Assembly: GCA_965215265.1 (NCBI GenBank)
Contig: OZ244048.1
Span: forward strand, 1-64,000
Length of the DNA stretch: 64,000 nt
Direction of reading: 5' to 3'
Source: Candidatus Poribacteria bacterium
GTDB lineage: Bacteria > Poribacteria > WGA-4E > WGA-3G
Below, piece by piece: positions 35,884 to 54,712 of this stretch. The number at the start of each line of letters is the position of its first letter. Position 1 is the stretch's first letter. The notes under the pieces are model-generated. The model was given only the letters and a program-made list of their open reading frames with translations. It was not told the DNA's origin and searched no databases. A program made the translations under genes and the position numbers.

Positions 35884-37239
35884 TTGAACCATAGAAAACG
35901 TATTCTAGGCACGCCGCACTGTTGCAAACGTCTATTGCAAAGTCGGTTCTTCATCTTATGTTTCATCGTTACCTTAGGAGTAAGTCCTGCTATGGCTGGC
36001 GAATGGCCGAGTTGGCGTGGCGCTCAACAGAACGGTACATCGGCTGAAACCAATTTGATTTCTAGCTGGTCGGTATCCGGAGATAACCTCCTCTGGCACG
36101 CAGAATTTATAGGCCGTTCTACACCTATCGTCTTAAATGAACGAGTGTACGTTATCGGGCGTACTGGTGAAGATATCACACAGCAAGAGCGTATTGCCTG
36201 TTTTGACGCAAAAACAGGTGAACTGCTTTGGAGCCACGAATTTAATGTCTTTCACACAACAATTTCCTTTAACCGCGTCGGTTGGGCGAGTCCTATAGGT
36301 GATTTGGAAACAGGAAACATCTACGTTCATGGGGTACAAGGGCTATTTTTCTGTTTTGATAAAGATGGTAATATTGTGTGGTCACGGTCGCTCACAGAAG
36401 AATATGGCAGGATTTCTGGTTACGGAGGTCGCATCCATACGCCGATTATCGCTGGAAATTTAGTCGTAATCAGTTACCTGAATTCAGGCTGGGGCGAGCA
36501 AACCGCTACACGGCACCGTTATTTTGCATTTGATAAACAGACTGGCGAATTAATATGGGTATCCACTCCGGGCGGTAGACCGCTCGACACGACCTATTCA
36601 ACACCGGTTGTTACGGAGATTGATGGACACCCTCTAATTATTGGTGGAAATGCCGATGGCAGCATTTATGCAATGAAGCAAGAGACCGGTGAAATGATAT
36701 GGGGCTTTAAGTTAAGTCAGCGCGGGATTAATACATCGGTTGTGGTTGAAGGTACTAAGGTCTACGCCTCACACGGTGAGGAGAACATAGATAGTACGAC
36801 AATGGGACGCGTTGTCTGCATTGATGCCACCGGCACAGGCGATGTTACCACTACGCATGAAGTCTGGCGATATGATGGGGTTAATTTTGGATACTCCTCT
36901 CCTACGATTCACGCGGGCCACGTCTACATTGTGGATAATTCGGCGAACGTTCACTGCCTCAACGCCGAGACCGGCGAATTACTTTGGGAACACAGCATTG
37001 GTACTGTCGGAAAGGGTTCGCCTGTCTGGGCAGACGGGAAATTGTACGTTACAGAGGTTAACGGCAAATTTCATATTCTGCAACCGACAGAAGAGGGGTG
37101 TGAATCCCTCGATGTAGAGCAGATTAACAGAAAAATTGACAGCCATTATGTAGAGATCTACGGATCGCCTGCAATTGCGGATGGGAAAATCTATTTTACC
37201 ACCGAAGAACACATCTATTGTATTGGGAGTATGAAATGA
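35884..37239 (+). CDS. Exported PQQ-binding-like (BamB-type) beta-propeller protein
   Basis: Signal peptide (AMA-G), EWPSWRG, repeated D..TGELLW and STP blade motifs. Confidence 0.88.
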   Translation: MNHRKRILGTPHCCKRLLQSRFFILCFIVTLGVSPAMAGEWPSWRGAQQNGTSAETNLISSWSVSGDNLLWHAEFIGRSTPIVLNERVYVIGRTGEDITQQERIACFDAKTGELLWSHEFNVFHTTISFNRVGWASPIGDLETGNIYVHGVQGLFFCFDKDGNIVWSRSLTEEYGRISGYGGRIHTPIIAGNLVVISYLNSGWGEQTATRHRYFAFDKQTGELIWVSTPGGRPLDTTYSTPVVTEIDGHPLIIGGNADGSIYAMKQETGEMIWGFKLSQRGINTSVVVEGTKVYASHGEENIDSTTMGRVVCIDATGTGDVTTTHEVWRYDGVNFGYSSPTIHAGHVYIVDNSANVHCLNAETGELLWEHSIGTVGKGSPVWADGKLYVTEVNGKFHILQPTEEGCESLDVEQINRKIDSHYVEIYGSPAIADGKIYFTTEEHIYCIGSMK

Positions 37240-38180
37240 TGAAAATTTCTTGTAGAAGCAATTTGCTGATCGCGAGTCTTTGTGTCATAGTTTGCTGCAT
37301 CGTGGCCGGATGCGCTAGTAAAGAGGTTGCTCTGGTACCCAGCGAACGGATGCAATCAAGAGAGCCTGCGGTGTCTATTTTGCTAACCCCCGCTGAAAGC
37401 TTAACCGATAGGCAACCTGTTCAATTCACACTTATAGCTTTTGATGTAAACGGGAAGCGTACGAACAAAATTGGCAACAGCGAATGGGGGCTCATAGGTT
37501 TAGCAGGAACTGTCCAAGATGGGTTATTCACACCTGATAAAAGTGCGGGAGCACAAGCCGGAACAGTCGTAGTCCGCTCGGGTGCCATGAAAGCGGCGGC
37601 CCGCATCCGGGTTATTCCGCCACTCCCATGGACAGAAGATTTTGAAGCAATGGAGCCGGAAAAAAGCCCATCCCACTGGATCGGTTCAACAAGGAAGTTT
37701 TTCATCCGAGAAAAAGATGGCAACAAAGTTCTCGTTAAAACACCTGTCCAGCGCGGGTTAAACCGTTCGAACGTCTACATCGGTCCGCCGAAGATGAAAG
37801 ATTACACTATCCAAATTGACCTTATGGGCACGAAAGATAAACGCAGGCTCCCCGATATGGGGCTAATTGCAAATCGGTATACGTTGGACATGCAAGGTAG
37901 ACATCAACGTTTACAAATCCGTTCATGGGCATCTGACCTTCGTATGGCAAAGACGATAGATTTCGCTTGGGAAACCGATGTCTGGTATACCATGAAAATG
38001 GGCGTAGAAATTATTGATGGCAAAGCGATTATCCGTGGTAAAGTATGGCGGACTAGTGAGCCTGAACCGGATGCGTGGACACTGACAGCCGAAGACCCGC
38101 TCCCGAACGTGGAAGGCAGCCCCGGCATTTACGGATACTCTGCAACTGAAATTTATTACGACAATTTAAAGGTATGGTGA
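37236..38180 (+). CDS. Lipoprotein with Ig-like and ConA/DUF1080-like domains
   Basis: IVAG-C lipobox; ATGA overlap with the upstream stop; WYTMKM...GKVW...EPDAW...GSPGIYG..EIYYDNLKV. Confidence 0.65.
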   Translation: MMKISCRSNLLIASLCVIVCCIVAGCASKEVALVPSERMQSREPAVSILLTPAESLTDRQPVQFTLIAFDVNGKRTNKIGNSEWGLIGLAGTVQDGLFTPDKSAGAQAGTVVVRSGAMKAAARIRVIPPLPWTEDFEAMEPEKSPSHWIGSTRKFFIREKDGNKVLVKTPVQRGLNRSNVYIGPPKMKDYTIQIDLMGTKDKRRLPDMGLIANRYTLDMQGRHQRLQIRSWASDLRMAKTIDFAWETDVWYTMKMGVEIIDGKAIIRGKVWRTSEPEPDAWTLTAEDPLPNVEGSPGIYGYSATEIYYDNLKVW

Positions 38181-38183
38181 TAT

Positions 38184-39719
38184 ATGCAAAAGAATTATAC
38201 GACGGCAACAAGTGCGTCGTCAATTATCAGAGGGCAAGGGCTTGTAACTTGCACAGATACCATTAAAATCATTAACGCAAATACGACATTATGGCGGTTT
38301 TCTGCCCTTATCGTTGGACTTCTCTTGAGTCTTGTAATTCCTTGCACCGCTGCCAAAAAGGAAATCGCGCTGTGGGGTGGCACGCTCAGTAGAAACATGG
38401 TCTCCGATGAAAAAAATATACCTGCAACATGGAATTATGAAACCGGCGAAAATATAAAATGGACAGCACAACTGGGCTCGCAAACGTACGCCGGGCCGCT
38501 TGTTATTGGAGGCAAGGTATTTGTTGGGACCAATAACCAAGCACTCCGAAATCCAAAGTTAACAGGTGACCGGGGTGTCATCATGGCGTTTCGTGAAGCA
38601 GATGGTAAATTTCTCTGGCAGTCAACGCACACCAAACTGCCCTCCGGGCGCGTTAACGACTGGCCGCAACAAGGTGTCTGCTCAACCCCGTTTATTGAGG
38701 GCGACCGGCTCTACTATATCTCCAACCGCTGTGAAGTTGTCTGTGTAGATACGGAAGGCTTCTTAGATGGCGAAAACGATGGTCTCGTTACAGACGAGGC
38801 AGAGACGAGTGAGATTGATGCAGATATCATCTGGAGTTATGATATGATGGATGAGTTGGATGTCTTTCCACACAACCTCGCCACCTGCTCTCCGCTCGCT
38901 GTAGGTGATTTGCTTTTCCTAGAGACAAGCAACGGTGTTGATGAGGGACACATCCACATTCCTTCTCCTGATGCCCCCAGTTTTATTGCGTTAAACAAAA
39001 ACACAGGGGAACTTGTCTGGGAAGATGCTTCCCCGGGCGAAAATATACTTCATGGCCAATGGGCAAATCCGGCTTACGGCGTTATAAAGGGTGTACCACA
39101 GGTTATTATTCCCGGTGGTGATGGTTGGATCTATGCGTTTGAGCCGGAAACCGGGAAGATTATCTGGAAGTTTGACTGCAACCCCAAAGACTCAGTGTGG
39201 GAACTCGGTGGGAGAGGGACCCGAAACAACATCATTTCAACCCCGGTTGTCTACGAAGATAGAGTCTACATTGCCGTCGGTCAGGATCCAGAGCATGGCG
39301 AAGGCGTAGGACACCTCTGGTGTATTGATGCATCTCAGACGGGTGATATAACGGAGACTGCCGCTGTGTGGCATTTCGGTGATGAACAATTTAACCGGAC
39401 TATGTCCACAGCTGCTATTAGCGAAGGGCTGCTCTACATATCTGATTTGAGTGGATTCCTCTATTGCTTAGATGCAAACACCGGAGACCTCTATTGGAAA
39501 CATGACACCTATGCTGCTATTTGGGGCTCGCCCTTTGTCGTAGATGGTAAGGTTTACCTCGGCGATGAAGATGGGGATGTCGTTATCTTAAAAACGGGTA
39601 AAACCGAGCAAGTCCTGTTTGAAACCAACATGGGAAGTGCTGTTTACACAACGCCGGTGGCGAAAGATGGCGTACTATACATCGTAACCCGTAACATGCT
39701 CTTTGCCATCTCAGAATAG
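38184..39719 (+). CDS. Exported PQQ-binding-like beta-propeller protein
   Basis: WGGT.SRNMVS, NIKW.AQLGSQTY, repeated TGELVW/TGKIIW blades, hydrophobic N-terminal segment. Confidence 0.88.
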   Translation: MQKNYTTATSASSIIRGQGLVTCTDTIKIINANTTLWRFSALIVGLLLSLVIPCTAAKKEIALWGGTLSRNMVSDEKNIPATWNYETGENIKWTAQLGSQTYAGPLVIGGKVFVGTNNQALRNPKLTGDRGVIMAFREADGKFLWQSTHTKLPSGRVNDWPQQGVCSTPFIEGDRLYYISNRCEVVCVDTEGFLDGENDGLVTDEAETSEIDADIIWSYDMMDELDVFPHNLATCSPLAVGDLLFLETSNGVDEGHIHIPSPDAPSFIALNKNTGELVWEDASPGENILHGQWANPAYGVIKGVPQVIIPGGDGWIYAFEPETGKIIWKFDCNPKDSVWELGGRGTRNNIISTPVVYEDRVYIAVGQDPEHGEGVGHLWCIDASQTGDITETAAVWHFGDEQFNRTMSTAAISEGLLYISDLSGFLYCLDANTGDLYWKHDTYAAIWGSPFVVDGKVYLGDEDGDVVILKTGKTEQVLFETNMGSAVYTTPVAKDGVLYIVTRNMLFAISE

Positions 39720-39820: not shown

Positions 39821-40900
39821 ATGCAAATGAAACTCTCTCAAAAAATTACGAAAGCCCAAACCGAACTCGATGCCCACGTGAGGGACATTGTCAACTGGCA
39901 TTTTAGTCCGGAGACTGGCTGCCCTTTCTGGTTGGAGTTTGCTGAAACCCTTACTTTTGATCCAAAAAAAGAAATTGCTGGTTACGCAGACCTCAAACGC
40001 CTTGGGCATTTTCAAGATGAGTGGCTCCGGGGTGGCCCGGTGCGGCGATGGGTGCCAAAGGCATACGCGAATCAACCGATTTACGTGTTTGAGACCGGCG
40101 GTTCCACCGGCATCCCGAAGTGCCGGATTAGCGTCCAAGATTTCCATATCGATTATGAGCAATTTAGCACGACACTCTCTGATGAGGGATTCCCGCTCGG
40201 CAGCGATTGGCTCATGCTGGGACCGACAGGGCCCCGGCGTTTACGGCTTGCTGTTGAACACCTCGCCCAACATCGTGGCGGTATCTGTTTCCTTGTAGAT
40301 CTGGATCCACGCTGGGTGAACCAACTTGTGCGGTACGGCAAGCACCAAGAATTGGATGCTTACAAAAATCATGTCATCGCGCAAGCACTCAACGTCCTGA
40401 GGGCGCATGAAAACGTTCAGTGTCTTTTTACCACCCCTAAGCTGCTTGAAGCATTGTGTGAAAAAATTTCGTTGCAAAAAGCCGGCATTAAGGGTATCTT
40501 TTGTGGTGGAACGGAGATGGATGCACAGTTTCACCGATTTGCGCGTGAAGAGCTCGTTCAAGGCATCGATTTTGTCCCTACCTATGGCAATACGTTGATG
40601 GGGCTAGCTACTTGCAAACCATTTAATCCATCGGATAGCTATGCCATAATCTATTACCCGCCCCAACCACGTGCTGTGATTGAATTGGTAAATCCGGCGG
40701 ATCCGGAGGAACCGGTTGATTATGGCGAAACGGGGCGTGTCATGCTCACAACGTTGACAAAAGAATTTTTCATGCCGCGTTTTTTGGAGCGCGACGAAGC
40801 TGAACGTGCAAAACCGATTCCGGAGTACCCTTGGGACGGTGTTGAGAATCTACGCCTACTCACAGAGCTCCAAGAAAGCGTTGTCGTGGGTGTTTACTAA
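39821..40900 (+). CDS. GriC/EhpF-like atypical adenylate-forming (ANL) enzyme
   Basis: WHFSPETGCPFWL N-terminal motif, FETGGSTGIPK P-loop, DLDPRWV, YGNTLMG, ERD; family recalled from EhpF/GriC, not searched. Confidence 0.7.
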   Translation: MQMKLSQKITKAQTELDAHVRDIVNWHFSPETGCPFWLEFAETLTFDPKKEIAGYADLKRLGHFQDEWLRGGPVRRWVPKAYANQPIYVFETGGSTGIPKCRISVQDFHIDYEQFSTTLSDEGFPLGSDWLMLGPTGPRRLRLAVEHLAQHRGGICFLVDLDPRWVNQLVRYGKHQELDAYKNHVIAQALNVLRAHENVQCLFTTPKLLEALCEKISLQKAGIKGIFCGGTEMDAQFHRFAREELVQGIDFVPTYGNTLMGLATCKPFNPSDSYAIIYYPPQPRAVIELVNPADPEEPVDYGETGRVMLTTLTKEFFMPRFLERDEAERAKPIPEYPWDGVENLRLLTELQESVVVGVY

Positions 40901-41012
40901 TCCACCGGACCGGATATTGTCCACGTGATCCGAAGAGGGGTTCAAAATATGCAATTGCACATAGATTTTCTTTTTTCCGACCGGTAGCTCTATAAGATAC
41001 AAAAGAAAAATT

Positions 41013-41827
41013 ATGAATATTGAAAACCGAACCGTTTTTTCTAACGACAACTTGTTTGTTCTTCGGGGCTTAGACAGCGAGTCTATAGACTTAATTTATT
41101 TGGATCCACCCTTCAATTAGGAATTATGCCGCTCCTATAGGGAGCCAGGCGGCAGGCGCAGCGTTTAAAGATACGTGGACGTTATCGGATGTTGATAATG
41201 CATGGCATGGCGAGATTGCCGACCGTGAACCTGCGTTGTATCAAGCGATCACGCCGCTGAGTTAACGCATGGCAAAAGCATGAAATCTGATCTGATTACT
41301 ATGGCGGTGCGCGTGATAGAGATGAAACGCGTTAAAAAAAACGGGAGTATCTATCTGCATTGCGATCCGACAGCCAGCCATTATCTGAAGGTGATGATGG
41401 ATAGCATCTTCGGAAAAAATAACTTCAGGTCTGAGATTACGTGGAAGCGTACAACCTCTACGCAAAAAGGATCTCAGCATCGTAGCACACGGTGGGGCAA
41501 CAACGCTGATATACTTCTGTATTATGCTGCATCGCCATCCACATGCTTGCGTCCAGAAAGAGAATTGTTTGTATACAGGTGCCCAACACCAATCTATGTT
41601 ATGATAACCCTTGCATAAATCTCGTCTGAGCCGTCCGGTGTTTTGACTTTAAAGACATAACCTAAGAAATCTCCGACGAGATCTACATCGGATTTAACAC
41701 AACATAACCCTTTATGGTACGGAGATAGACAAAAAAGTTTGTGAACCCGCATCCGTCTGTTGCAAAGGGACGAGGCATGTAGGAGGAATTGATCACTCGT
41801 TTAAAAGGACAAGGTGTTCTAAAATAA
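41013..41827 (+). pseudogene. Decayed N4/N6 DNA methyltransferase (possibly an MTase-HNH fusion)
   Basis: DNLFVLRGLDSESIDLIYLDPPFN, AFKDTW, GSIYLHCDPTASHYLK spread over several frames with stops; tail EELITRLKGQGVLK. Confidence 0.8.
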
Positions 41828-42012
41828 AGAAGTAGAGATTTGTAGAGCCTAAATACCTGTTTGGATGTCCACTAACAATATAAGAAGGGTTTGAAATCGT
41901 GCTGGGCCGGAAAGTAAGACTTGGTGGTATTTGCGAATTCGGATTTTGTTGGAGGCACTTTGTCCGCCTCCGTCCAATGAAAGTTCAATATAACTCAAAG
42001 AGGAGCCTGACT

Positions 42013-42717
42013 ATGCCAACGAAAATTGAAAAAATGTTCCGGTCACCCTATTCGGTACCGAACGGTTTGCAAGTTACAGACGATGGCTTATGGGTCGTCG
42101 ATCAGATTACTGACAGAGTCGCTTTAGTTGAAATCATAGCAGATCCGGACTATACCGTGCCGAAACTCATCCGCGACATCTCCAGTGAGTCTTCTAACAC
42201 CAGCGGTATGACGTATGGCGAAGGCGCGCTCTGGCTAGCAGCAAATGGCCCTGGAGAACGCTGGCGTCCGGTTAGAGACACAGATGCCAAACCCGGTGCG
42301 AGCGAGATTTTCAAAGTCGACCCTGATACCGGTGAAACCCTTGGACGCTATCCAATCCCTGATGGCGGGGGAACGCACGGTGTCGAATATGACAATTACG
42401 ATGAAGGACATCTCTGGGTTCAGACGCTGAAAAACCGTGAGATACACAAGATTAGCACTTCAGACTGGTCTATCCAGCACACGTTGCCCCTACCGTACGA
42501 CCGGGGACACGGCACTGTTCGTGTTCCAGACGGCCTCTGGGTAACACATACCTCCAACCGTGTTATTGCCAAGCTCGACCTGGCAGATGGCACTATCCTA
42601 GACGAGATCGAGGTAGATGAGGCGTACCCTGAACCGCATGGGCTTTCTATCTATGGAGAAGATTTTCTGTACTGCGATGCTGCCTCCGGCTGGATCGCAA
42701 AGATTACACACACATGA
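42013..42717 (+). CDS. Cytoplasmic beta-propeller protein (Vgb/glutamine cyclotransferase-like)
   Basis: Repeated GLWV/ALWL/HLWV blades with THG, GHG and PHG motifs; AGGAG RBS; stop overlaps the next start. Confidence 0.6.
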   Translation: MPTKIEKMFRSPYSVPNGLQVTDDGLWVVDQITDRVALVEIIADPDYTVPKLIRDISSESSNTSGMTYGEGALWLAANGPGERWRPVRDTDAKPGASEIFKVDPDTGETLGRYPIPDGGGTHGVEYDNYDEGHLWVQTLKNREIHKISTSDWSIQHTLPLPYDRGHGTVRVPDGLWVTHTSNRVIAKLDLADGTILDEIEVDEAYPEPHGLSIYGEDFLYCDAASGWIAKITHT

Positions 42718-44123
42718 TGAGACACATTCCAATTTTGCGAGCGGGACGTTCCTACAGAAGTTTGAACACCGTTTGTCTTTACCATATTAAAACAGGTGAG
42801 CCCTTAGCCGAAGTCAGCCAAGCCAATCGTGGGCTCATTTCCAAAGACTTGGGCGACATGAGACTCCACAAGCAGGCACTTGGACAGCATTCTGTTGCCG
42901 AATTGCTTTCAATTTGCACAGAAGCTGCGAGGCTTTTCACAACGGCCGAACTTCCGCTTGACCAAGATGTTCAATCCCCCACGGATTATCTTCGACAGGT
43001 CTCGGGCACAACAGGGCTTCCGGAAACTCTCTGTCAACAGAATATGGATAAGATTCAGAGTGTGCTGGAGAAAATGCCAGAGGTCCTTGATGGGTTAACC
43101 CGTGGTTTAGATTTGTCTCTCCTTGATACTGGCTGGGGTGCCCAAAACGGCCGCACGCTGAGTTACGTTTGTGAAACGGATATGCTGTCAGCCGTGCTTC
43201 CGAGCAATTCTCCCGGTGTCCACTCGTTGTGGTTACCTGCCATCCCGCTAAAAGTCCCTCTCGTGCTAAAACCGGGGCGAGAGGAGCCCTGGACTCCGTA
43301 TCGGATTGCCCAAGCGTTTATCGCTGCAGGGTGTCCCGCCGCCGCATTTAGTTTCTACCCGACTGGTCACGCGGGTGTAAACGAGATCCTGTTCCGTTGT
43401 GGCAGATCTATGCTATTCGGTGGTGGTTCAACTGTTGCACCGTGGATGAACGATCCGTGCGTCGAAATCCACGGACCAGGTCGAAGCAAAATCATCATGG
43501 ATAAGGAGCAGAGTGCACACTGGAAAAACTATTTGGAACTGATTGTAGAATCAGTCGCCAAAAATGGTGGTAGATCCTGCATTAATGCCTCTGGCGTATG
43601 GGTAACGTCCCATGGGCACGACATTGCAATGGCGTTAGCAGAACGTTTAGCACAGATACAACCGAAACCGCTTGATCATCCTGAAGCACAACTCGCGGCA
43701 TGGGCGAATCCCAAAGCCGCCCACGGCATCTCATCCCTAATTGACCTGCACCTTAAAGAACCTGGGGCAACAGAATTGACAGCGAGTGACCGAGTCGTTG
43801 AGTTAGATGGCTGTACCTTCCTCAGGCCGACTGTGATATGGTGTGAGGATGCGGAGCATCCATTAGCAAATACAGAGTTTCCCTTTCCATTCGTCAGTGT
43901 TGTCGAAGTACCATCAGCGAAGTTAGTAGAATCCATTGGTGCGACACTGGTTGCCACGGCAATCACAGAAGACCCGGCACTTATTGGAGAATTGCTAGCA
44001 ACTCCGTTAATCGACCGGTTGAATCTCGGACCAATCCCGACAACACAAATTTCTTGGGATAGTCCGCACGAGGGAAATCTGTTTGCATTTCTCTATCGGC
44101 AACGGGCGTTTCAATTTGCGTAA
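42714..44123 (+). CDS. GriD/LuxC-like acyl reductase (aldehyde dehydrogenase fold)
   Basis: LPSNSPGVH, KPG, FGG, HGPGRSK in place of ELGGK, catalytic Cys in GGRSCINAS, EFPFPF. Confidence 0.8.
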   Translation: MMRHIPILRAGRSYRSLNTVCLYHIKTGEPLAEVSQANRGLISKDLGDMRLHKQALGQHSVAELLSICTEAARLFTTAELPLDQDVQSPTDYLRQVSGTTGLPETLCQQNMDKIQSVLEKMPEVLDGLTRGLDLSLLDTGWGAQNGRTLSYVCETDMLSAVLPSNSPGVHSLWLPAIPLKVPLVLKPGREEPWTPYRIAQAFIAAGCPAAAFSFYPTGHAGVNEILFRCGRSMLFGGGSTVAPWMNDPCVEIHGPGRSKIIMDKEQSAHWKNYLELIVESVAKNGGRSCINASGVWVTSHGHDIAMALAERLAQIQPKPLDHPEAQLAAWANPKAAHGISSLIDLHLKEPGATELTASDRVVELDGCTFLRPTVIWCEDAEHPLANTEFPFPFVSVVEVPSAKLVESIGATLVATAITEDPALIGELLATPLIDRLNLGPIPTTQISWDSPHEGNLFAFLYRQRAFQFA

Positions 44124-44153
44124 TAACTTCAAAGAATCGGAAAGGAGCATTAT

Positions 44154-45218: not shown

Positions 45219-45340
45219 TTTCCTTGTATTAAGGCGCATGTTAAGTAGCCTCGTTGCTGAGCAGGAAACACTACACTTGCAAGAGCAAGAGATGGCAAAG
45301 ACGTTAGATCTGTTAGTGGAGTGTCAGAAGCGAGCTGACA
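45024..45340 (+). repeat. Imperfect ~160 bp tandem duplication
   Basis: 45024-45183 repeated at 45184-45340, with a 3 bp indel and about ten substitutions. Confidence 0.92.
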
Positions 45341-45342
45341 AA

Positions 45343-45486
45343 CGAACTTCTGCTTGACCGGGACGTTCGATCCTCGGCGGATTATCTCCGACAGGTCTCG
45401 GGCACAACAGGGCTTCCGGAAACCCTCTGTCAACAGAACATGGATAAGATTCAGAGCCCGACCGGTCACGTAGGTGTAAACGAAAT
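45343..45486 (+). pseudogene. Diverged partial copy of the GriD-like gene
   Basis: 45343-45456 matches 42947-43060 (about 11 mismatches in 114 bp), joined directly to a match of 43358-43387. Confidence 0.85.
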
Positions 45487-46040
45487 TCAGAATGGCAAAA
45501 GTGGCTGGGAAAAGTTTAGCTTTTTTTTCAAAAAGCGATTTTTTTAACGGCCTTTTTTAGCGTCTCCCGCCCCCTATATCCCTCTGCAAGCGAGGTCATA
45601 ATTCGGGTTCGGTTTATCCAATTATTTTTTCTTCATGAAGGAGCAAAATTTTTTATCTATACGTTTTGCCAAATCTGCTATAATAATGGCGTTTACCCTA
45701 TGAGATTGCGAACTTCAGAGAGGTTTTTGCTAATTTTCGCATCATTATTTCGTTAAAACCGTAAAAAAACAAAGAGTTGCATAATATTACAGAATCTGAT
45801 AAACTAAAAAAGTGTAGTACTTACACAGAGTCCATTGTTGTTGGCACAAAGCGTTTAAACAACAAACTATAGTTTCACCTGATTGGGATTTATGCAGCTT
45901 ACTTACGTAGTTTCCAAGATGGTGCAATAAATTGTGCGACGACGAAAAAGTAGGTTTGCAGTTGGGAAACCATTTATCGCCCTTGTACAAACCTTGAAAT
46001 GTTTATTTTAATTAAATTTCTGCTTAAAGGAGAGCAAAAT

Positions 46041-46820
46041 ATGATGAACTTAAAATTAGGAAGCTTGCTATTATTATTCCTTCTGGTCGCTTTGGTTGGC
46101 TGTGATTCAGCGCGAGACGCTGTATTGGACACGACACAGTCATCAAATCCGGTCATTGGGGATGCCACAGCTGACGTAGAAGCATCACCTATAAAACTTC
46201 TGTGGCTTATCAACTATCCGCGCGGCGGAAAAGATGCATACCTAGAATGGGTTGCATCCGTCTCCCCGACGCTTGCCGCACCCGCAGAGTTAAAACGCAT
46301 CGCCTCTTACGATAACTATTATGGCGAAAATCCGCATCGACTTGTTGAATTTGAATTTGGCAGTTTTGTTGATGCCATGACCTACTTAAATAGGCCCGAC
46401 ATTGCAGCGGTTCTTGAAGCACTACCTGACTACAGCAGTGAATCAAGAACATACACGTTCATTCAACGGTCAGATTACTCAAAAGTATTGGATACCAACC
46501 GAGCAATCAAATCGATTTACCTAATTGACTATCCCCTGGGAGGCAAAGACGAGTATTTGACGTGGGTTGAGACTAAGGCACTCGCACTTATAGCGCCCGA
46601 CGAACTCAAACGCATCGCCTCTTATGATAATTATTATGGCGAATCACCGCATAGGCTCGTTGAACTTGAGTTTGATAGCATGGAAGAAGCGAACCGTTAT
46701 CAAATTTTAGAGGGGCCACGGGGCGTTAGTGCAGAACTTCCAAATCAAGCAGGCAGAGTAACGATGCATGTATTTGAACTACGTGGAGATTACGTCAATT
46801 TGAATCAATCTGTTGAGTGA
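46041..46820 (+). CDS. Lipoprotein with two tandem EthD-like (dimeric alpha/beta barrel) domains
   Basis: LVG-C lipobox; two copies of YP.GGKD.YL.WV...LKRIASYDNYYGE.PHRLVE.EF. Confidence 0.75.
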   Translation: MMNLKLGSLLLLFLLVALVGCDSARDAVLDTTQSSNPVIGDATADVEASPIKLLWLINYPRGGKDAYLEWVASVSPTLAAPAELKRIASYDNYYGENPHRLVEFEFGSFVDAMTYLNRPDIAAVLEALPDYSSESRTYTFIQRSDYSKVLDTNRAIKSIYLIDYPLGGKDEYLTWVETKALALIAPDELKRIASYDNYYGESPHRLVELEFDSMEEANRYQILEGPRGVSAELPNQAGRVTMHVFELRGDYVNLNQSVE

Positions 46821-47344
46821 GAAACAGAAGGACGAATATCACTGTTAGTGATGTCGTACGGCACGGTTATTTCGCCGCTGCGTTCGGTGATTTAGCGTTG
46901 AACTCTATTGTTAAAGCCGGGGATGTGATTGAAATTCAGGTTGTGGATACAGCAGGGAATCTCATCACGAAGCCGTTAGCGTACACAGTAACATCCGATA
47001 TGCTCAAAACCGCGTTCATCTCTGTCGTGCTTGAAGCGAACCCGCTACCGAAGACGATTGTACTCCTCCAGAATTATCCGAATCCGTTCAATCCAGAGAC
47101 GTGGATTCCCTACCAACTCAGTGAAGCGGCCTCCGTTATGATCACTATCTATGATGTGACAGGCAAGCAGGTCCGCTCACTGGACCTCGGACATCAAGGT
47201 GCAGGATTCTATATGAGTCGTTCCCAAGCGGCCTATTGGGATGGACGAAACGCTGTGAATGAACCTGTCGCTTCCGGTATCTATTTCTATCAGATTGAAG
47301 CAGGGACGTTCTCGGCAACGCGCCGCATGTTGATTCTGAAGTAG
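46817..47344 (+). CDS. Orphan FlgD-Ig / secretion C-terminal sorting-like domain (likely a gene fragment)
   Basis: LLQNYPNPFNPETWIPYQL...YWDGRN...VASGIYFY...RRMLILK; no signal peptide. Confidence 0.75.
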   Translation: MRNRRTNITVSDVVRHGYFAAAFGDLALNSIVKAGDVIEIQVVDTAGNLITKPLAYTVTSDMLKTAFISVVLEANPLPKTIVLLQNYPNPFNPETWIPYQLSEAASVMITIYDVTGKQVRSLDLGHQGAGFYMSRSQAAYWDGRNAVNEPVASGIYFYQIEAGTFSATRRMLILK

Positions 47345-47366: not shown

Positions 47367-47398
47367 GCAAAGACGCAGAAACAGGTCTGCGTCTTTGC
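47367..47398 (+). terminator. Hairpin terminator
   Basis: GCAAAGACGCAGA-aacagg-TCTGCGTCTTTGC 13 bp perfect stem. Confidence 0.7.
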
Positions 47399-47554: not shown

Positions 47555-48733
47555 GTGAATTCATATCTATCATACAAATTACAGTATAGACAAAACAGAA
47601 AGACCTTTTTTCTGCTGATAGGGTTGGTTTTAATTCTGTTTTCACAGTGTGTGAGCCTTTATTCAGCTTCAAGCGATTGGACAGGTTTTCGGGGTAACCC
47701 ACAGCTCACTGGTGCTGCAGCAACCGAACTCCCGGATGCATTAGAACTTCTCTGGACGTTTCAAGCTGCAGATATGATTGAGGGAACTGCAGCAGTCGTT
47801 AAGGGCATTGTGTACGTCGGGGCGTTAGACGGTTATCTCTATGCAATTGACGCGAGAAACGGCGAACTGCAATGGAAGTATCAAGCCGGTGAGAGCGATT
47901 CTCCAGTTTCAATAAAGGCATCCCCTGCTGTTTATAACGGAGTCATCTATGTCGGGGATGGCGAAGGAGTCTTTCATGCTATAGAGGTGAACGCCGGAAA
48001 ACAGAAGTGGAAGTTCCAATCGGACGGGGAAATTTTCTCCTCGGCAAACTTCGGTGGAGCTAACGTTCTATTCGGTTCCTACGACGGCTTCCTCTATTGT
48101 CTCAATAGAGAGAGTGGTGCCTTAGTTTGGAAATTTGAAACCGAAGGCTACATTCACGGTACACCGGCGATTTTCGGGAATTCTGTGGTTATCACAGGAT
48201 GCGATAGTTATCTCCGCGTCATCAATATTGGTGATGGCAGTCAGACACAACAGGTTTACCTCGGTGCGTATGTCGGGGCAAGTCCCGCGATTTTAGAAAA
48301 CCGGGCTTACGCAGGGACGTACGGTACCGAAGTGCTGGGTGTAGAATTAGGGACAGGCAATATTGCGTGGCGGTATCAACATCCGAAGCGCAGATTTCCG
48401 TTTTTTGCCTCTGCGGCTGTAACCGAAGACGTTGTTATCATTGGGGGGCGCGATAAGATGCTACATGCACTCTCGCCAGATACTGGGGCCCCGCAATGGA
48501 TTTACACCGCTAAATCGCGTATTGAGTCCTCCGCGGTCATTGTCGGCAAACGTGTCTTCTTTGGTACAACCCGTGGCGTTTTGATTGCCTTAGATATATC
48601 GAACGGAGAGCCGGTATGGGAATTCGAAACCGGTTCAGCGATTGTCGCCTCGCCGAGTGTCGCCGACGGTCAGCTGTATATCGGCACAGAGTCAGGTACC
48701 CTATACTGCTTTGGAGAAAAAAATAATCCGTGA
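47555..48733 (+). CDS. Exported PQQ-binding-like (BamB-type) beta-propeller protein
   Basis: Signal peptide, DWTGFRGNPQLTG, about eight G...W.F.T...I.SSP blades. Confidence 0.9.
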   Translation: MNSYLSYKLQYRQNRKTFFLLIGLVLILFSQCVSLYSASSDWTGFRGNPQLTGAAATELPDALELLWTFQAADMIEGTAAVVKGIVYVGALDGYLYAIDARNGELQWKYQAGESDSPVSIKASPAVYNGVIYVGDGEGVFHAIEVNAGKQKWKFQSDGEIFSSANFGGANVLFGSYDGFLYCLNRESGALVWKFETEGYIHGTPAIFGNSVVITGCDSYLRVINIGDGSQTQQVYLGAYVGASPAILENRAYAGTYGTEVLGVELGTGNIAWRYQHPKRRFPFFASAAVTEDVVIIGGRDKMLHALSPDTGAPQWIYTAKSRIESSAVIVGKRVFFGTTRGVLIALDISNGEPVWEFETGSAIVASPSVADGQLYIGTESGTLYCFGEKNNP

Positions 48734-49153: not shown

Positions 49154-49649
49154 TTTGTAAGTGCGTGGTAACTCATGTCAAATAAATTAAATAGGATTGT
49201 TTTTCCACAAAGGTAGAAAAGGAATGTTCTTTAAGAAGATTGCCATGAATTTGAATTTTGTCAGGGAGGCATAGATGCGAAAACATTCCTACCTATTTGG
49301 CTTAATTCTCACAATTTTCCTCACAATAGCAGGTATTCTTCCGATATTAGACGCGCAGCTGAAAATCTACCTTAGGAACCCTACAGACCAATTCGATAAG
49401 AGTCGCTTGATGGGAATTGAGTGTAAAAGAGCCTGCTGTTTCTCAGGATTACCATCTTAGTTACAGTGTGATTCACAGTGAAAATGCGATTGAAATTACA
49501 GTTTTCTACTATTCGTGGTTCGACCATGCTAATCTGAACAAAGCGGTTGATCTTGCCCTGCAGCGAACTCACTGAATGCAAAATTATGGGGGTAGGGCAC
49601 GTGGTTGAAAAGCTAAGGAACATATTGAGTTGCTTGAATGGAGAGAGTG

Positions 49650-50984
49650 ATGTCTCAAACACAGCCTGAGCCTGCAACAGCAGGTATAGATTCAAAACAA
49701 ACAACCGTCGGGAGCGTTTTCGTTTCCAATTACCCGCCCTATTCTGTATGGGGTGAATCAGCTATTCCAGATGTGAGGCGCGCCTTGGCAGAACCGCCAC
49801 GGCTGGATACCCCCCTTGGACTGTATCTACATGTTCCGTTCTGTCGCAAACGGTGCAAGTTCTGCTATTTTCGTGTCTATACAGATAAGAACAGTTCGGA
49901 GATTGATACGTATCTGAACGCGCTCGCGAAAGAGATTGAGATTTACAGTGCCAAGCCAGCAATTGCAGGTAGAACGCTGAAATTCGTCTATTTCGGGGGT
50001 GGTACCCCATCTTATATTAGCGTTAACCACCTCAAGACGCTGGTAGAGCGAGTCAAACGCGCGATGCCGTGGGATGATGCGGAAGAGATCGCTTTTGAGT
50101 GTGAACCTGGCACATTGACAAAAAAGAAATTAGAGGCGATCAGAGCCATTGGCGTAACCCGATTAAGCCTGGGTGTTGAGAATTTGAACGACGACATCCT
50201 TGCCGAAAACGGTAGGGCGCACCTCTCCAAAGAGGTCTACCGTATCGCGCCGTGGATACAGGCGTTAGGGTTCGCGCAAGTCAATATAGATCTCATCGCC
50301 GGCATGGTAGGCGAAACCTGGGAGAGCTGGCGGGAAACGGTGGAAAAGACGATAGAACTCGACCCGGATAGCATTACTATCTATCAGATGGAACTCCCGT
50401 TTAATACCGTCTACTCCAAGGATATTCTGGGCGGAGACGCGCTACCGGTAGCAGATTGGAAGTTGAAGCGTGAATGGCACCAGTACGCGAATGAGCAGTT
50501 TGCAAAGATAGGATATCGCCGCTCTAGTGCATATACTATGGTTAAGAAGCAGAAGCCTGCACAATTTGTCTATCGCGATGCAGTGTGGCAAGGGAGTGAT
50601 ATGCTGGGCACCGGGGTTGCCTCATTCTCACATTTAAGCGGAATTCATTTCCAGAACGCGCCGTCATGGGGAGACTATCTCGGACAGCTGGAGCAAAATC
50701 AGTTACCCTTACACCGCGCACTAGCCCCAGCGAACACCGAACAGTTGACGCGCGAGATGATACTTCAACTCAAGCTAGGAGAAATTAAAACCTCCTATTT
50801 TAGAGAGAAATTTAACGCTGATATTCTCACGTTGTTCGCTGATGCATACGAGAAACTGCAGAATGACGGTATGCTGACGTTCACTGAAGATGAAATTCAA
50901 TTAAGCGAACGCGGCCTGCTCCAGGTCGATAGTTTACTCCCTGCCTTTTATGCCCCTGAGTATCAGAATAGACGCTATACTTAA
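49650..50984 (+). CDS. HemN-like (class C) radical SAM enzyme
   Basis: LYLHVPFCRKRCKFC, YFGGGTPS, RLSLGV, NIDLIAG, HemN-type C-terminal domain. Confidence 0.9.
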   Translation: MSQTQPEPATAGIDSKQTTVGSVFVSNYPPYSVWGESAIPDVRRALAEPPRLDTPLGLYLHVPFCRKRCKFCYFRVYTDKNSSEIDTYLNALAKEIEIYSAKPAIAGRTLKFVYFGGGTPSYISVNHLKTLVERVKRAMPWDDAEEIAFECEPGTLTKKKLEAIRAIGVTRLSLGVENLNDDILAENGRAHLSKEVYRIAPWIQALGFAQVNIDLIAGMVGETWESWRETVEKTIELDPDSITIYQMELPFNTVYSKDILGGDALPVADWKLKREWHQYANEQFAKIGYRRSSAYTMVKKQKPAQFVYRDAVWQGSDMLGTGVASFSHLSGIHFQNAPSWGDYLGQLEQNQLPLHRALAPANTEQLTREMILQLKLGEIKTSYFREKFNADILTLFADAYEKLQNDGMLTFTEDEIQLSERGLLQVDSLLPAFYAPEYQNRRYT

Positions 50985-51069: not shown

Positions 51070-52314
51070 ATGGATACAAAAATACAGTTACGTCGCCTTC
51101 GCTGCATGCTCGCCCCGGTATTAGAGACGAATGCATTTTATAAACAGAAACTCATGGCATCCGGAGTTTCCCATCCAAACGATGTCCAAACATTAGAGGA
51201 TTACCAACGTTTACCCTTTACCACTAAGGAAGAGTTTAGTGCGGACCAGGTGGCACATCCCCCTTACGGCACCAACCTCACCTATCCATTGGAGAAGTAT
51301 ACGTGCCTTCATCAAACTTCTGGCACAACGGGAGAACCGATGCGGTGGTTAGATACAGCAGAGTCGTGGTATTGGTGGGGGAAATGTTGGCGGGAAATCT
51401 ACCGGGATGCAGGCGTGACAGCCGTTGACCGGCTGATGATCGCTTTTACGTTCGGTCCGTTTATCGGTTTCTGGAGTGCTTATCATGGTGCCCAACAGCT
51501 AGGTGCGTTGACAATTCCGAATGGCGGAATGACTTCTGATCAGCGTATACGTGCTATCCTCTACAACGATGTCACTGTGCTGCTTTCCACGCCGACATAC
51601 GCGCTGCGGCTCGCCGAAGCTGCCGAAAAAGCGGGGATTAACCTAGCACGTGAGGCGAGTGTTAACGTTACCATTCACGCTGGCGAACCGGGTGCGAGTT
51701 TATCTTCTACAAAACAGCGCATCGAAAGGCTGTGGGGTGCACGCACTTACGACCATGCCGGGGCGACAGAGGTCGGTGCATGGGGAATTATGTGCCTCCG
51801 ACAGGCAGGAATGCATCTCAATGAAGAGGAGTTCATCTGTGAAATCATTGACCCGGCCACTGGCAAACCTGCTGACGAAGGTGAACTTGTCATCACGAAT
51901 CTTGGGCGCGTCGGTATGCCGGTCATACGATACCGCACGGGTGATTACGTCAAACTAAAAGCGTCGCCATGCGAATGTGGTAAGCAGAGCCGGGTGCTTG
52001 ATGGCGGTGTCAAAGGTAGAATAGACTCCCTCCTCATCATTCGCGGTCTGAACCTTTATCCTACCACGATTGAAAACATCATTTTCCAATTCCCTGACGT
52101 GCTTGAATTTTCCGTGCAGGTTTATCGTGCCGGCACGCTTGATGAACTTGAAATTCAGATTGAATCTAAAAGTCATACGCCTGAACACACGGCAACGGCA
52201 GTAGCCGCTAAGATTCGAGACGTTTTAGGACTGCGCACCATTGTAAAAGCTGTACCAGTCGGTACATTTCCACGAGCGAGTCTCAAAGCGAATAGATTTT
52301 CAGATACACGTTAG
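51070..52314 (+). CDS. Phenylacetate-CoA ligase (PaaK)-like adenylating enzyme
   Basis: LPFTTK, TSGTTGEP, AGEPG, DHAGATE, RYRTGD, GRID. Confidence 0.88.
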   Translation: MDTKIQLRRLRCMLAPVLETNAFYKQKLMASGVSHPNDVQTLEDYQRLPFTTKEEFSADQVAHPPYGTNLTYPLEKYTCLHQTSGTTGEPMRWLDTAESWYWWGKCWREIYRDAGVTAVDRLMIAFTFGPFIGFWSAYHGAQQLGALTIPNGGMTSDQRIRAILYNDVTVLLSTPTYALRLAEAAEKAGINLAREASVNVTIHAGEPGASLSSTKQRIERLWGARTYDHAGATEVGAWGIMCLRQAGMHLNEEEFICEIIDPATGKPADEGELVITNLGRVGMPVIRYRTGDYVKLKASPCECGKQSRVLDGGVKGRIDSLLIIRGLNLYPTTIENIIFQFPDVLEFSVQVYRAGTLDELEIQIESKSHTPEHTATAVAAKIRDVLGLRTIVKAVPVGTFPRASLKANRFSDTR

Positions 52315-52366: not shown

Positions 52367-53638
52367 ATGAAAAAAGATCAAAACTATGACATCACTGTTA
52401 TAGGCGGCGGCCCCGCCGGAAGCACCGTTGCAGCCCTTGTTGCAGAGCAAGGGTATCGTGTCTTGCTGCTCGAACGTGAACCACAACCGAGTTTCAAAAT
52501 AGGCGAATCGCTCATCCCGGCAACATACTGGACGTTTAAACGGCTTGGGGTTCTTGACAAACTGCGAACGAGCCACTTTCCCAAAAAGTACAGTGTGCAA
52601 TTCTACTCACGCAACGGAAAAGCCTCTACACCGTTCTACTTCTTTGAAACGAACCCGCATGAAAGTGCTGTGACTTGGCAAGTTTTGCGGAGTGAATTCG
52701 ATCAGATGCTTCTTGAGAATGCTGAAGAAAAAGGAGCGGAAATTCGACGAGGCATGAGAGTAAACGACGTGCTCTTTGAGGGTAACAAGGCGGTCGGCGT
52801 TGTTATCTCGCCCGCACGGCGAGATGCGCGGTGCGAAATCATTCACGCCTCTGTCATCGTTGATTCCACGGGGCAGCGTTCTCTCCTCGGAAGGCAGTTA
52901 AACCTAAACGCGACGGAACCGAACTTAAAAATGGCATCCCTCTTTACCCATTTTGAAGGGGCACACCGCGATACGGGAATTGACGAGGGTGCGACGCTTA
53001 TCCTGCACACCAAGGCGAAGGAATCTTGGTTCTGGTCGATTCCGCTTCCTTACAACTGCACAAGCATTGGCGTTGTCGGGGAATTAGGATATCTGCTTCA
53101 GAATCGCAGGGATTCTAATGGAAAACTGGATGCACAGAAAATATTCGACGAAGAGTTGGAGAAGTGTCCAGCATTGAAGCAACGCCTTAACGGTGCAAAG
53201 CAGCTTTTTGGGATAAAGACGACCAAGGATTTCTCCTATCGCGCCAAACGTATTGCAGGCAATGGGTGGGTTTTGGTAGGAGATGCATTCGGATTTCTAG
53301 ATCCGGTTTATTCAACGGGGCTGTTTTTGGCCCTGAAATCCGGCGAGATGGCAGCTGATGCAATTATGGAAGCGTTTAAAAAGAACGACTTTTCTGAGGC
53401 GCGGTTGGGAAATTTCGGACCGACATTTGTTAAGGGCATGGAAGCGTTCCGGAAATTAGTTTACGCCTTCTATACAAAGGAATTTAGTTTCGCCCGGTTC
53501 CTCGCACAACATCCGGAGCAGCAGGATAATATCATTGATATTCTCAGTGGAGATGTCTTTAGAAAAGACGTAACTTCCCTTTTTCCGGCGATGGCAGAGA
53601 TGTGCCAACTTCCGCCGGACATCCAGTTAATACCGTAG
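52367..53638 (+). CDS. FAD-dependent halogenase-like oxidoreductase (CndH/PltA/CmlS type)
   Basis: GGGPAGS, KIGESL, FPKKY lysine, WFWSIP (WxWxIP), GDAFGFLDPVYSTG. Confidence 0.82.
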   Translation: MKKDQNYDITVIGGGPAGSTVAALVAEQGYRVLLLEREPQPSFKIGESLIPATYWTFKRLGVLDKLRTSHFPKKYSVQFYSRNGKASTPFYFFETNPHESAVTWQVLRSEFDQMLLENAEEKGAEIRRGMRVNDVLFEGNKAVGVVISPARRDARCEIIHASVIVDSTGQRSLLGRQLNLNATEPNLKMASLFTHFEGAHRDTGIDEGATLILHTKAKESWFWSIPLPYNCTSIGVVGELGYLLQNRRDSNGKLDAQKIFDEELEKCPALKQRLNGAKQLFGIKTTKDFSYRAKRIAGNGWVLVGDAFGFLDPVYSTGLFLALKSGEMAADAIMEAFKKNDFSEARLGNFGPTFVKGMEAFRKLVYAFYTKEFSFARFLAQHPEQQDNIIDILSGDVFRKDVTSLFPAMAEMCQLPPDIQLIP

Positions 53639-53740
53639 ACGATTTCTTAGCAGAACTTCTTTTTCAGTCCCAGTGGAGTGGCATGTGACGCGTCAACCGA
53701 AACTTATGGGTAATAGTAAACTAATTTGTAAGGAGAGCAC

Positions 53741-54712
53741 ATGAAAATAATTACAAACGTTATAACCGTAATCTGTCTCATCTCAGCGTTATCCATTAAC
53801 ATGGGGTGCGACAACAGTGCTAAGCGCCGCTATATCAGCATCGGGACTGCTCCTGCCGGAGGCGCGTTTTTTCCCGTGGGTGGTGCAATTGCAGAGGTTG
53901 TTGGTAGTAACCCTCCGGAGAAAAATTGGGAAGTTACTGCTGAAGCGACGAAAGGGACGCAGGAAAATATCCGACATCTTGTGAATGGTGATTTAGAATT
54001 CGCACTTGCGAACGCGGCAATTTCTTATTTTGCTGTGCGCGGTGAAGGTGTGTGGGGAGAACCACACAATATCCGCGTAGTCATGACACTTGCTCCGAAT
54101 GTTGCACTGTTTGTCACACCAAAATCCTCGGGCATCCAAACAATTGCCGATTTGAAAGGCAAACGTGTCGTTGTAGGTCCCGCCGGGGCAGGTTTTGAAC
54201 ATTTCCTTCAGCCTCTACTCGCTGAGCACGGTGTTACATATAAGGATTTTACCGACATTAACAGTACTTACATCGGTGCCGTGGATCTGCTTGCTGACGG
54301 TTCAGCCGCTGCAGCGTTCATGGGTGGGGCAATTCCGACCCCTGCTGTTATCCAAGCCTCTACATCTCAAGACATATTTTTGATTCCGTTTGATGACTCG
54401 GCAACACGGTCACTGTTTAAAAAGTATCCCTTCTTTAATGCAATTACCCTTCCCGCTAATACTTATAAGGGTCAGACCGAACCGTTTGCAACCATGAATG
54501 TAGGCGCGATGCACCTTATCACTTCCGAGAAGGTCGATGAATCCCTCGTCTATCAATTTACCAAGGTTCTGTACACAAATCGTGCGGAAGTTGTCAAACG
54601 TCATGGAGCCGGCAAGGCAATTAATCCGAAAAATGTTGTGAAAAATACCGGCACGCCTTTTCATCCGGGGGCTATCCGTTTTTATCGTGAAATTGGTATT
54701 TGGACCGAATGA
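53741..54712 (+). CDS. TAXI family TRAP transporter solute-binding lipoprotein
   Basis: Lipobox [36 protein letters not shown]. Confidence 0.92.

Follow-up and report, generated by a model that had tools for sequence, protein, structure and literature searches.

What connects beta-propellers of the pyrroloquinoline quinone (PQQ) type that are exported from the cell with a flavin-dependent halogenase and a radical S-adenosylmethionine (SAM) enzyme encoded beside them? The question is raised by positions 35884 to 54712 of a 64,000-nucleotide stretch of Candidatus Poribacteria DNA (assembly GCA_965215265.1, contig OZ244048.1, positions 1 to 64,000; hereafter the window), in which every long open reading frame (ORF) is on the plus strand. 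A first-pass annotation made from the sequence alone had proposed that these genes form an undescribed biosynthetic system. We find that this block is no chance neighbourhood but the Poribacteria copy, rearranged, of a multi-operon system that has been conserved. Conserved gene order and joint loss make the functional coupling of the propellers, the radical SAM enzyme and the halogenase a well-supported prediction. The best reading of their role, which we hold tentatively, is that a tailored, halogenated hydroxybenzoate-type molecule is linked to the exported propellers.

The genes of the system, with the letters used here, are listed below. Protein families in the window were assigned by Pfam and NCBIfam profile scans, together with sequence searches of the PDB.

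A, 35884..37239, plus strand: exported PQQ_2-type beta-propeller (PF13360, 102.6 bits)
B, 37218..38180, plus strand: lipoprotein with lipobox VAGC and likely start at 37236, without a known family
C, 38184..39719, plus strand: exported PQQ-repeat propeller, with the highest conservation among the exported proteins
D, 39821..40900, plus strand: EhpF/GriC-like truncated adenylating enzyme (PDB match to EhpF, E = 2.5e-43)
F, 41899..42717, plus strand: small cytoplasmic propeller, weakly Vgb-lyase-like, likely start at 42013; accessory
G, 42714..44123, plus strand: protein of the aldehyde dehydrogenase (ALDH) fold, candidate GriD-like reductase; Cys retained, general-base Glu replaced by His
K, 47555..48733, plus strand: exported PQQ_2/Beta-prop_ACSF4 propeller, directly upstream of L
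L, 49638..50984, plus strand: HemN-like class C radical SAM enzyme
M, 51070..52314, plus strand: PaaK-type aryl/acyl-CoA ligase (NCBIfam PaaK, 227–234 bits, under the cut-offs)
N, 52367..53638, plus strand: flavin-dependent halogenase of the PltA/Bmp2/Mpy16 type
O, 53741..54712, plus strand: solute-binding protein of a TAXI-type tripartite ATP-independent periplasmic (TRAP) transporter (TIGR02122, 254.9 bits)

The genes lie where the first-pass annotation placed them. The motifs it reported (an EhpF-like enzyme, an ALDH without its Glu, CxxxCxxC, WxWxIP, PaaK and TAXI) and the common plus strand were all recovered by the ORF and family scans. The names of the close homologues of D are Candidatus Poribacteria.

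Linkage was examined by comparing the window proteins, by tblastn, with segments of at most 40 kb (30 kb for the third set) around D, L or C in related genomes. All 15 relatives have A-B-C as a contiguous trio, and in all but one of these 15 genomes, G026, the next gene after C is D. K and L are adjacent in all 14 relatives compared, and six of nine L-centred regions have M and N no more than 20 kb from L. Three genomes (G040, G037 and G025) carry the order A-B-C-D-F-G-FeADH-K-L...M...N...O on a single strand, where FeADH is the gene for an Fe-type alcohol dehydrogenase (Fe-ADH). In G026 and in G044/G045 the units are found at three or more separate loci, and all of them are retained. Within family f1, the unrelated genes P-Q-R (encoding a TPR protein, DsbD and PorX) are as syntenic with O-N-M-L-K as these genes are among themselves, and synteny at that depth therefore proves little. 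In relatives as distant as another family or class, P-Q-R no longer accompany the system, and K-L, M-N and A-B-C-D persist as units.

Among 121 genomes of the phylum, C is present in 115 and L in 113, and L never occurs without C. The C-only genomes, G116 and G061, are assemblies of 180 and 100 contigs. Six genomes that are 88–97% complete (G030, G063, G105, G041, G042 and G043) lack C, and the same six also lack L, N, D, G and a chorismate lyase. Three of them have close relatives that carry everything. Because the genomes are kin, these absences represent few independent losses, perhaps three.

The system is also found outside the Poribacteria. An alignment of N, used to scan metagenomes, identified 80 loci in which N is 47–79% identical. 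Of the loci with N below 55% identity, 25 have 2 kb or more of upstream sequence, and in 20 of these L is immediately upstream of N. A match to the 4HBT family of hotdog thioesterases occurs in 36 of 56 loci with N below 57% identity, and this gene adjoins N in the distant contigs. Five of these contigs (L102, L124, L126, L127 and L129) and two cut contigs (L128 and L130) show the order A-B-C-K-L-thioesterase-N on one strand, with identities of 40–41% for A, 34–39% for B, 56–60% for C, 41–44% for K, 53–55% for L and 48–50% for N. A TonB receptor gene is divergent from A in the distant contigs; a 751-amino-acid plus-strand ORF upstream of A was rejected as the antisense of that receptor gene. 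The C protein of one distant contig has thousands of close relatives, and among the 120 listed, the two that carry an organism name are named Vicinamibacterales and Acidobacteriota. Vicinamibacterales are an Acidobacteriota group widespread in soil. Another order, D-G-FeADH-K-L-...-N, is found in L073, L081 and L119. The proposal that these genes belong together is thus upheld, as their homologues co-occur, stay linked across Poribacteria and the distant contigs, and are lost jointly.

The halogenase assignment of N rests on the motifs GGGPAG, WFWSIP and FPKK, the last of which aligns with FPKKFGAAW of PltA and Mpy16. The best solved matches of N are Mpy16, PltA and Bmp2, all three aligning along its entire length, and those to Mpy16 and PltA extend from end to end at 196–197 bits. 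Its profile scores are 171 bits for CmlS, 121 for QhpG, 102 for LodB and 75 for GoxB. Lys74, WFW[YS]IP and GxGxxG are kept in five of five aligned Poribacteria sequences, and the same Lys and both motifs in 70 of 70 metagenome homologues covering these sites.

M matches PaaK over its full length (PDB 4r1l, 2.4e-56), and the homology begins near 51070, the start chosen in the first-pass annotation, and not at 50950. However, its scores against the PaaK equivalog models (226.7 compared with 646.3, and 233.9 compared with 700) lie below the cut-offs, and it also matches the FlxY and BagE/FevW models. The fold-level relation is clear, and we classify M as a predicted PaaK-family ligase. M and N are on the same strand. 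The M-N spacer of 52 nucleotides and the N-O spacer of 102 nucleotides are both too short for a carrier-protein gene, and a CoA ligase or a thioesterase stands in place of a carrier protein.

L contains the motif CRKRCKFC (CxxxCxxC) and GGGTP, and matches both PF04055 (73.6 bits) and the HemN_C domain PF06969 (37.2 bits), as in class C radical SAM enzymes. It is below every NCBIfam cut-off in this group, with scores of 195.9 against 324.95 for hemN, 167.7 against 205.4 for HemW and 180 against 400 for ChuW, and is likewise below that for HemZ. In the PDB it matches HemN (1olt, 2.8e-38, full length) and NocN (3e-27). Read directly from the sequence, the residue corresponding to what we take to be the fourth Cys of the HemN motif is a Phe in L. 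The Pfam scan gave no match to a SPASM domain. A true HemW is encoded elsewhere in the genome (318.8 bits, cut-off 205.4), and L is a second HemN-like gene beside it.

The HemN-like character of L raises the question of whether it serves heme synthesis. No HemF was found in the genome. A ChdC-like gene is present, and ChdC belongs to the coproporphyrin route, which needs no HemN. Because genome G030 retains a strong UroD (436 bits) without L, L is unlikely to be a housekeeping heme enzyme, as judged from gene content. The search of six genomes with the URO-D Pfam model was swamped by paralogues, and the match in G030 alone was used. There are 18–77 URO-D matches each in G041, G042, G043, G063 and G105, compared with two in G000 and two in G030; this paralogue expansion falls in exactly the system-less lineages G041, G042, G043, G063 and G105.

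The exported proteins are less easily assigned to known families. A, C and K each have a hydrophobic leader as read by eye, and those of A and C appear to be of the non-lipoprotein kind. The leader peptide of K is conserved in 14 of 14 orthologues. Against the BamB model (TIGR03300/PRK11138) A, C and K score 62.8, 74.8 and 146.7, compared with a cut-off of 285.2, so that no propeller reaches the level of a BamB orthologue, an identity that would have told against the first-pass proposal. Against the PQQ-dependent dehydrogenase model TIGR03075 the three score 45–98 bits, compared with a cut-off of 480. K reaches 222.9 bits on PF13570 (cut-off 133), and it is the second-best BamB-like match in the genome. 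A BamB-like role for K is still conceivable because no BamB over the cut-off is found in the whole genome. PqqC gave no match and PqqE none over its cut-off in the whole genome; the PqqC control, which matched 0 of 14 control genomes, was uninformative.

B overlaps the stop codon of A and ends three nucleotides before C. It has no Pfam, NCBIfam or PDB sequence match, and it was aligned with 14 orthologues from relatives and contigs. A DUF1080-like C-terminal domain in B was considered and gained no support, as hhalign against a DUF1080 protein gave a probability of only 0.3. C is 69–93% identical within the phylum and has many invariant His, Asp and Glu positions; a profile of C gave only blade-level matches in the PDB.

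A second group of enzymes, D and G, is consistent with the reduction of a carboxylate. Residues 16–359 of D align with residues 23–369 of EhpF (PDB 3hgu/3l2k), a full-length match that identifies D as an enzyme of the EhpF/GriC type. D is 74–91% identical across its order, where 39 of 41 genomes carry it; homologues of D occur in one of 41 genomes of the order to which G125 belongs. A 40%-identical homologue of D in another lineage is directly followed by a 31%-identical, full-length homologue of G that also lacks the Glu. D-like domains are also found fused to a class III aminotransferase (Streptomyces, 824 amino acids; P0207) or to a Zn-dependent alcohol dehydrogenase (725 amino acids; P0229), and such fusions make sense after aldehyde formation.

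G keeps the catalytic Cys (GRSCIN). In place of the Glu of the ELGG motif it has a His, and a distant homologue has a Phe there. D and G adjoin each other in G027, L053, L073, L081 and L119, are separated only by F in nine relatives, and are unlinked in family f5 and in G026. An ALDH-fold partner with its Cys beside an adenylating enzyme is the arrangement of GriC and GriD. In G026 and G109, G sits with FeADH-K-L and D is found elsewhere. We infer that G and Fe-ADH resemble a split acyl-thioester-to-alcohol reductase. The start of G overlaps the stop of F, a protein that scores 31.6 on PF24684, under the cut-off of 50, and has a PDB match to virginiamycin B lyase at about 1e-7. F was not found in the fetched stretches of G032, G027 and family f5.

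The substrate of these enzymes is best approached through the genes that accompany M and N. In G044/G045 a chorismate pyruvate-lyase gene (PF01947, 59.9 bits) overlaps the start of M, giving the order lyase-M-N. This lyase is present in nine of 14 system-carrying genomes and in none of the six system-less genomes. A TonB receptor gene lies upstream of PhyH-lyase-M-N in G044/G045, and another lies between L and M in L072-L074, L081 and L085. O scores 254.9 bits on TIGR02122, far over the cut-off of 84, and it is followed by a DctM permease gene in G040 and G025. The clusters examined showed no genes for ring cleavage or beta-oxidation.

Other genes accompany these units in individual genomes. 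The PhyH gene of G044/G045 is just upstream of the lyase-M-N operon, and in the window several genes for PhyH-type dioxygenases lie near the block (32351-33082, 34300-35115 and 20289-21179). In G040 a propeller of the glucose/sorbosone dehydrogenase family (PF07995, 303 bits; L030:12919-14121) is encoded between M and N, overlapping the stop of M, and the cluster of this genome also has Kelch, HAD, DUF488 and DuOB genes and a further PQQ_2 propeller.

In this genome the block is broken by three interruptions, which the first-pass annotation did not note and which were not found in relatives: an insertion between D and F, the genes H-I-J, and a 904-bp spacer between K and L. Several genes of the system lie elsewhere. 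Of 14 relatives, 13 have Fe-ADH directly upstream of K, in the place held here by H-I-J, and the orthologue in this genome is at C1:4595648-4596754. The chorismate pyruvate-lyase gene is at C1:371463-372017, distant from the block, and the orthologue of the TRAP permease encoded after O in G040 and G025 is at C1:1338230-1339978. The inserted features are as follows.

Methylase fragment and repeat, 41280..41736, plus strand: insertion outside the system; 112-amino-acid ORF with partial PF01555, and a dispersed repeat of about 170 bp
H-I-J, 44154..47344, plus strand: insertion outside the system; two proteins without a family and a protein with a type IX secretion system (T9SS) tail

The spacer between D and F (40901-41898) has 256 blastn matches in the genome, most of them to approximately 41565-41736. 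The copies of this repeat of about 170 bp (41565-41736) are 71–97% identical and have the appearance of a miniature inverted-repeat transposable element. The adjoining 112-amino-acid fragment of an N6/N4 DNA methylase (41280-41618) has 24 related genome sites by tblastn, and intact or partial copies of the methylase also occur in the regions of relatives. The fragment and repeat are absent between D and F in relatives.

H and I were not found in the blocks of relatives, and J matches elsewhere in their stretches through its T9SS tail only. The GC content is 0.418 in 44001-46000. Just downstream of H, a duplication at 45175-45457 contains the C-terminus of H and residues 67–116 of G, the G fragment being 45308-45457. 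H has no family and contains EAGKLR repeats, and I, also without a family, is an internally repeated lipoprotein-like sequence. The T9SS sorting tail of J (46817-47344) has 30 tblastn matches in the genome. Directly after J, a hairpin with a perfect 13-bp stem (47367-47398) is the strongest terminator-like site of the region.

As the first-pass annotation had noted, polyketide synthase, nonribosomal peptide synthetase and pqq genes are absent; none was found among window ORFs of at least 180 amino acids. Family scans found no amide-forming or peptide-building enzyme in the window. No Rfam riboswitch was identified in the window or in four related loci. There is no excess of predicted promoter sites (22, compared with 27.3 in shuffled sequence) or terminator sites (13, compared with 19.2). 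Two tRNA genes at 55291-55443 lie between O and a convergent TPR gene, and the syntenic block stops there. A PorX-type T9SS response regulator is encoded at 58645-60198 (479 bits, over its cut-off).

From gene content, motifs, linkage and co-occurrence, we can propose a function, in which the substrate, product, order of steps and role of the propellers are inferred. The core comprises three pieces: the exported A-B-C trio, the exported propeller K coupled to L, and the halogenase N. Lineage-specific accessories would handle an aryl acid in thioester form. Aromatic-acid chemistry is plausible, and an aromatic-acid substrate gains support from the lyase that overlaps the M-N operon, the 4HBT thioesterase beside N and the D-like fusions. 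The pairing of D with G, these fusions, the lyase-M-N order and the distribution of the lyase suggest a hydroxybenzoate-type acid handled as a CoA thioester. Chorismate pyruvate-lyase would give an acid of the 4-hydroxybenzoate type, or such an acid could enter from outside through the TAXI-TRAP transporter or a TonB receptor. M would form the CoA thioester of the aryl acid, N would halogenate the ring, and L would perform a radical step, most likely C-methylation. In the distant contigs the 4HBT thioesterase would free the acid. In the Poribacteria D would adenylate the carboxylate, the Glu-less ALDH-like G would reduce it to an aldehyde, and Fe-ADH would then produce the alcohol. The product would be tied functionally to the exported propellers as a ligand, cofactor or substrate. 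Of the first-pass claim that the cluster builds an aromatic metabolite used by the propellers, the aromatic part gains support; the system may make or may consume the compound, which the propellers may bind.

Several observations weigh against this reading. No match to the PP-binding family was found among the scanned proteins of the window or of the clusters of relatives, so that no carrier protein is seen near N, and there is no flavin reductase in the cluster. Family f2 and g12 have no chorismate lyase, and this holds also for the single-contig genomes G037 and G040 of f2. In the 25 distant loci with sufficient upstream sequence, M is upstream of N in none, and the distant contigs lack M, D and G. 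HemN itself is the nearest solved relative of L. The TonB receptors and the TRAP transporter fit import as well as export. Additionally, most of the deep linkage comes from only two lineages, and the related genomes are kin, so that the counts overstate the number of independent events.

A more specific version of the hydroxybenzoate proposal, which we consider unlikely, is that a halogenated, radical SAM-modified hydroxybenzyl compound (acid, aldehyde or alcohol) serves the exported propellers as a non-PQQ cofactor or as a recyclable redox shuttle. As a shuttle, the compound would be oxidised outside by the propellers, the acid would be re-imported through the TRAP transporter or a TonB receptor, and it would be re-reduced by D, G and Fe-ADH. 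Such a shuttle would parallel, in bacteria, the chlorinated aryl-alcohol cycle of fungi.

The strongest competitor of the hydroxybenzoate proposal, though itself improbable, is that the system takes up and breaks down or salvages an external aromatic, halogenated or tetrapyrrole-like compound. The TonB receptor and propellers would take in and process the compound, TAXI-TRAP would import the acid, and M, the thioesterase, N, L, D/G and Fe-ADH would degrade or recycle it in the cytoplasm. TonB-dependent receptors do recur in three lineages (G044/G045; L072-L074, L081 and L085; the distant contigs), genes for a TAXI binding protein and its permease come after N in G040 and G025, and the score of L on the model of the heme-degrading ChuW/HutW (180 bits) is near its HemN score. 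PaaK ligases are, moreover, classic catabolic enzymes. However, the chorismate pyruvate-lyase of the M-N operon produces an aryl acid and does not consume one, the hallmarks of a halogenase are all kept in the 70 homologues of N, and the clusters examined are devoid of ring-cleavage and beta-oxidation genes. In the accessible part of its description, GriC/GriD-type acid reduction also runs in the anabolic direction (PMC10179220). We give appreciably less weight to the possibility that the locus is an ordinary secondary-metabolite cluster of a sponge symbiont, of the type called Halo_AMP, making a small brominated product for the host with the propellers as bystanders. Clusters that pair a flavin-dependent halogenase with a PaaK-like enzyme, and that carry radical SAM, TonB and PQQ-like domains, are reported in the available text of a recent preprint, and the best hits given there, BagE and Bmp2, agree in kind with the ones obtained for M and N (Loureiro et al., bioRxiv 2026, 10.64898/2026.08.03.742642). 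The genes described here nevertheless behave as core genes, present in 113–115 of 121 genomes of the phylum at 60–93% identity, and they recur in contigs whose C relatives are named Vicinamibacterales or Acidobacteriota. The same text reports mostly host-specific families, and the window has no amide-forming or peptide-building enzyme.

It is less likely still that the genes are unrelated housekeeping genes adjacent by descent, with L as HemN, K as a BamB-like assembly factor, O as a general transporter and D/G as a separate pathway. This would account for the equal synteny of P-Q-R in family f1, for HemN being both the best model and the best solved match of L in a genome without HemF, for K being the second-best BamB-like match where no true BamB is found, and for the two halves of the system being far apart in many genomes. 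It does not sit well with the departure of P-Q-R at family distance where K-L, M-N and A-B-C-D remain, with the return of the same order in distant contigs, or with the joint loss of all families in six genomes. The UroD of G030 without L, and the ChdC-like gene that hints at a coproporphyrin route, point the same way. Slightly more doubtful again is a role of N and L in maturing a protein-derived cofactor of an exported protein, on the model of QhpG and QhpD, or of LodB, as builders of tryptophylquinone cofactors. A cytoplasmic flavoprotein and a radical SAM enzyme beside exported proteins do resemble the quinohemoprotein amine dehydrogenase operon; N has detectable scores on QhpG (121 bits), LodB (102) and GoxB (75), and C has its many invariant residues. 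However, N is nearer to the halogenases (171 bits for CmlS, and 196–197 bits over full length for Mpy16/PltA) with the Lys and WxWxIP kept, L is HemN-like with no SPASM match, and M, the thioesterase, the lyase, D/G and Fe-ADH are all small-molecule enzymes.

If the more specific cofactor or shuttle version is correct, the 'empty' quinoprotein-like propellers of two lineages would gain a function. An explanation for 'orphan' propellers where no PQQ is made could lie in the way that exported PQQ-like propellers are constantly paired with tailoring enzymes of the cytoplasm. Poribacteria are uncultured sponge symbionts, and a system centred on a halogenase and so well conserved in both Poribacteria and Vicinamibacterales suggests that a halogenated molecule is made or used well outside the natural-product chemistry of sponges. 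As the parts of the system are few and soluble, the idea is directly testable.

The closest described relatives of the system are the Halo_AMP clusters of sponge metagenomes, defined by a flavin-dependent halogenase together with an AMP-binding enzyme. In the available text of the preprint their best hits are BagE/YtkN and Bmp2, radical SAM enzymes, TonB transporters and 'poorly characterized PQQ-like' domains occur at high frequency, 8% of the families come from Poribacteria, and a product is assigned to none (10.64898/2026.08.03.742642). With 52 nucleotides between them on the same strand, M and N conform to this definition as given there, and the likeness extends to the halogenase next to a PaaK-like enzyme, the radical SAM, TonB and PQQ-like components and the Poribacteria carriers. 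However, Halo_AMP clusters are defined by two domains and read, in that text, as sources of host-specific brominated peptidic products, whereas the core of the window system is the propellers, the radical SAM enzyme and the halogenase. The distant contigs have no ligase, which is thus dispensable, and the genes are near-universal in the phylum. The first-pass description of the system as undescribed must accordingly be narrowed: clusters of a halogenase and a PaaK-like ligase, often with PQQ-like and radical SAM domains, had been defined, as far as the preprint text goes. Beyond the preprint, our literature search found no prior description of a core of propeller, halogenase and radical SAM enzyme. 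The same search found no description of this core in Acidobacteriota-related contigs, of its near-universality in Poribacteria, or of a GriC/GriD-like reductase with Fe-ADH and chorismate lyase.

The reductase arm resembles GriC/GriD and EhpF in the full-length match of D to EhpF, in the ALDH-fold partner that keeps its Cys, and in the adjacency or near-adjacency of D and G in most genomes. EhpG is the partner of EhpF in a two-protein carboxylate reductase. Unlike GriC/GriD, D is joined to the exported A-B-C trio, G may sit elsewhere (family f5 and G026), F is often between them, and Fe-ADH follows G. The 74–91% conservation of D across an order also differs from the sporadic presence of its homologues elsewhere. 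In the accessible description of the grixazone enzymes, GriC activates 3-amino-4-hydroxybenzoate by adenylation, and GriD carries out the reduction to the aldehyde (PMC10179220).

A, C and K are alike with PQQ dehydrogenases and BamB in the type of their blades and unlike them in scores far under the cut-offs. L shares CxxxCxxC, GGGTP, the HemN_C domain and a full-length match to 1olt with HemN and NocN, and differs from them in being under the family cut-offs and always paired with an exported propeller. Bromophenol pathways of the Bmp5/Bmp6 type are described, in the text available, as making these compounds from 4-hydroxybenzoate with a chorismate lyase, a flavin-dependent halogenase and a P450 (PMC10579414). 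The single lyase-ligase-halogenase operon of G044 and G045 is similar to these, and N is similar to the thioester-dependent halogenases PltA, Bmp2 and Mpy16 in its end-to-end match to PltA and Mpy16, its Lys and its WxWxIP motif. However, the window system differs from the Bmp5/Bmp6 and PltA systems in having neither a carrier protein nor a P450, with a CoA ligase or a hotdog thioesterase instead, and the lyase is absent in some carriers. The class C radical SAM enzyme and the exported propellers, which are not part of Bmp5/Bmp6-type or PltA pathways, are constant partners here.

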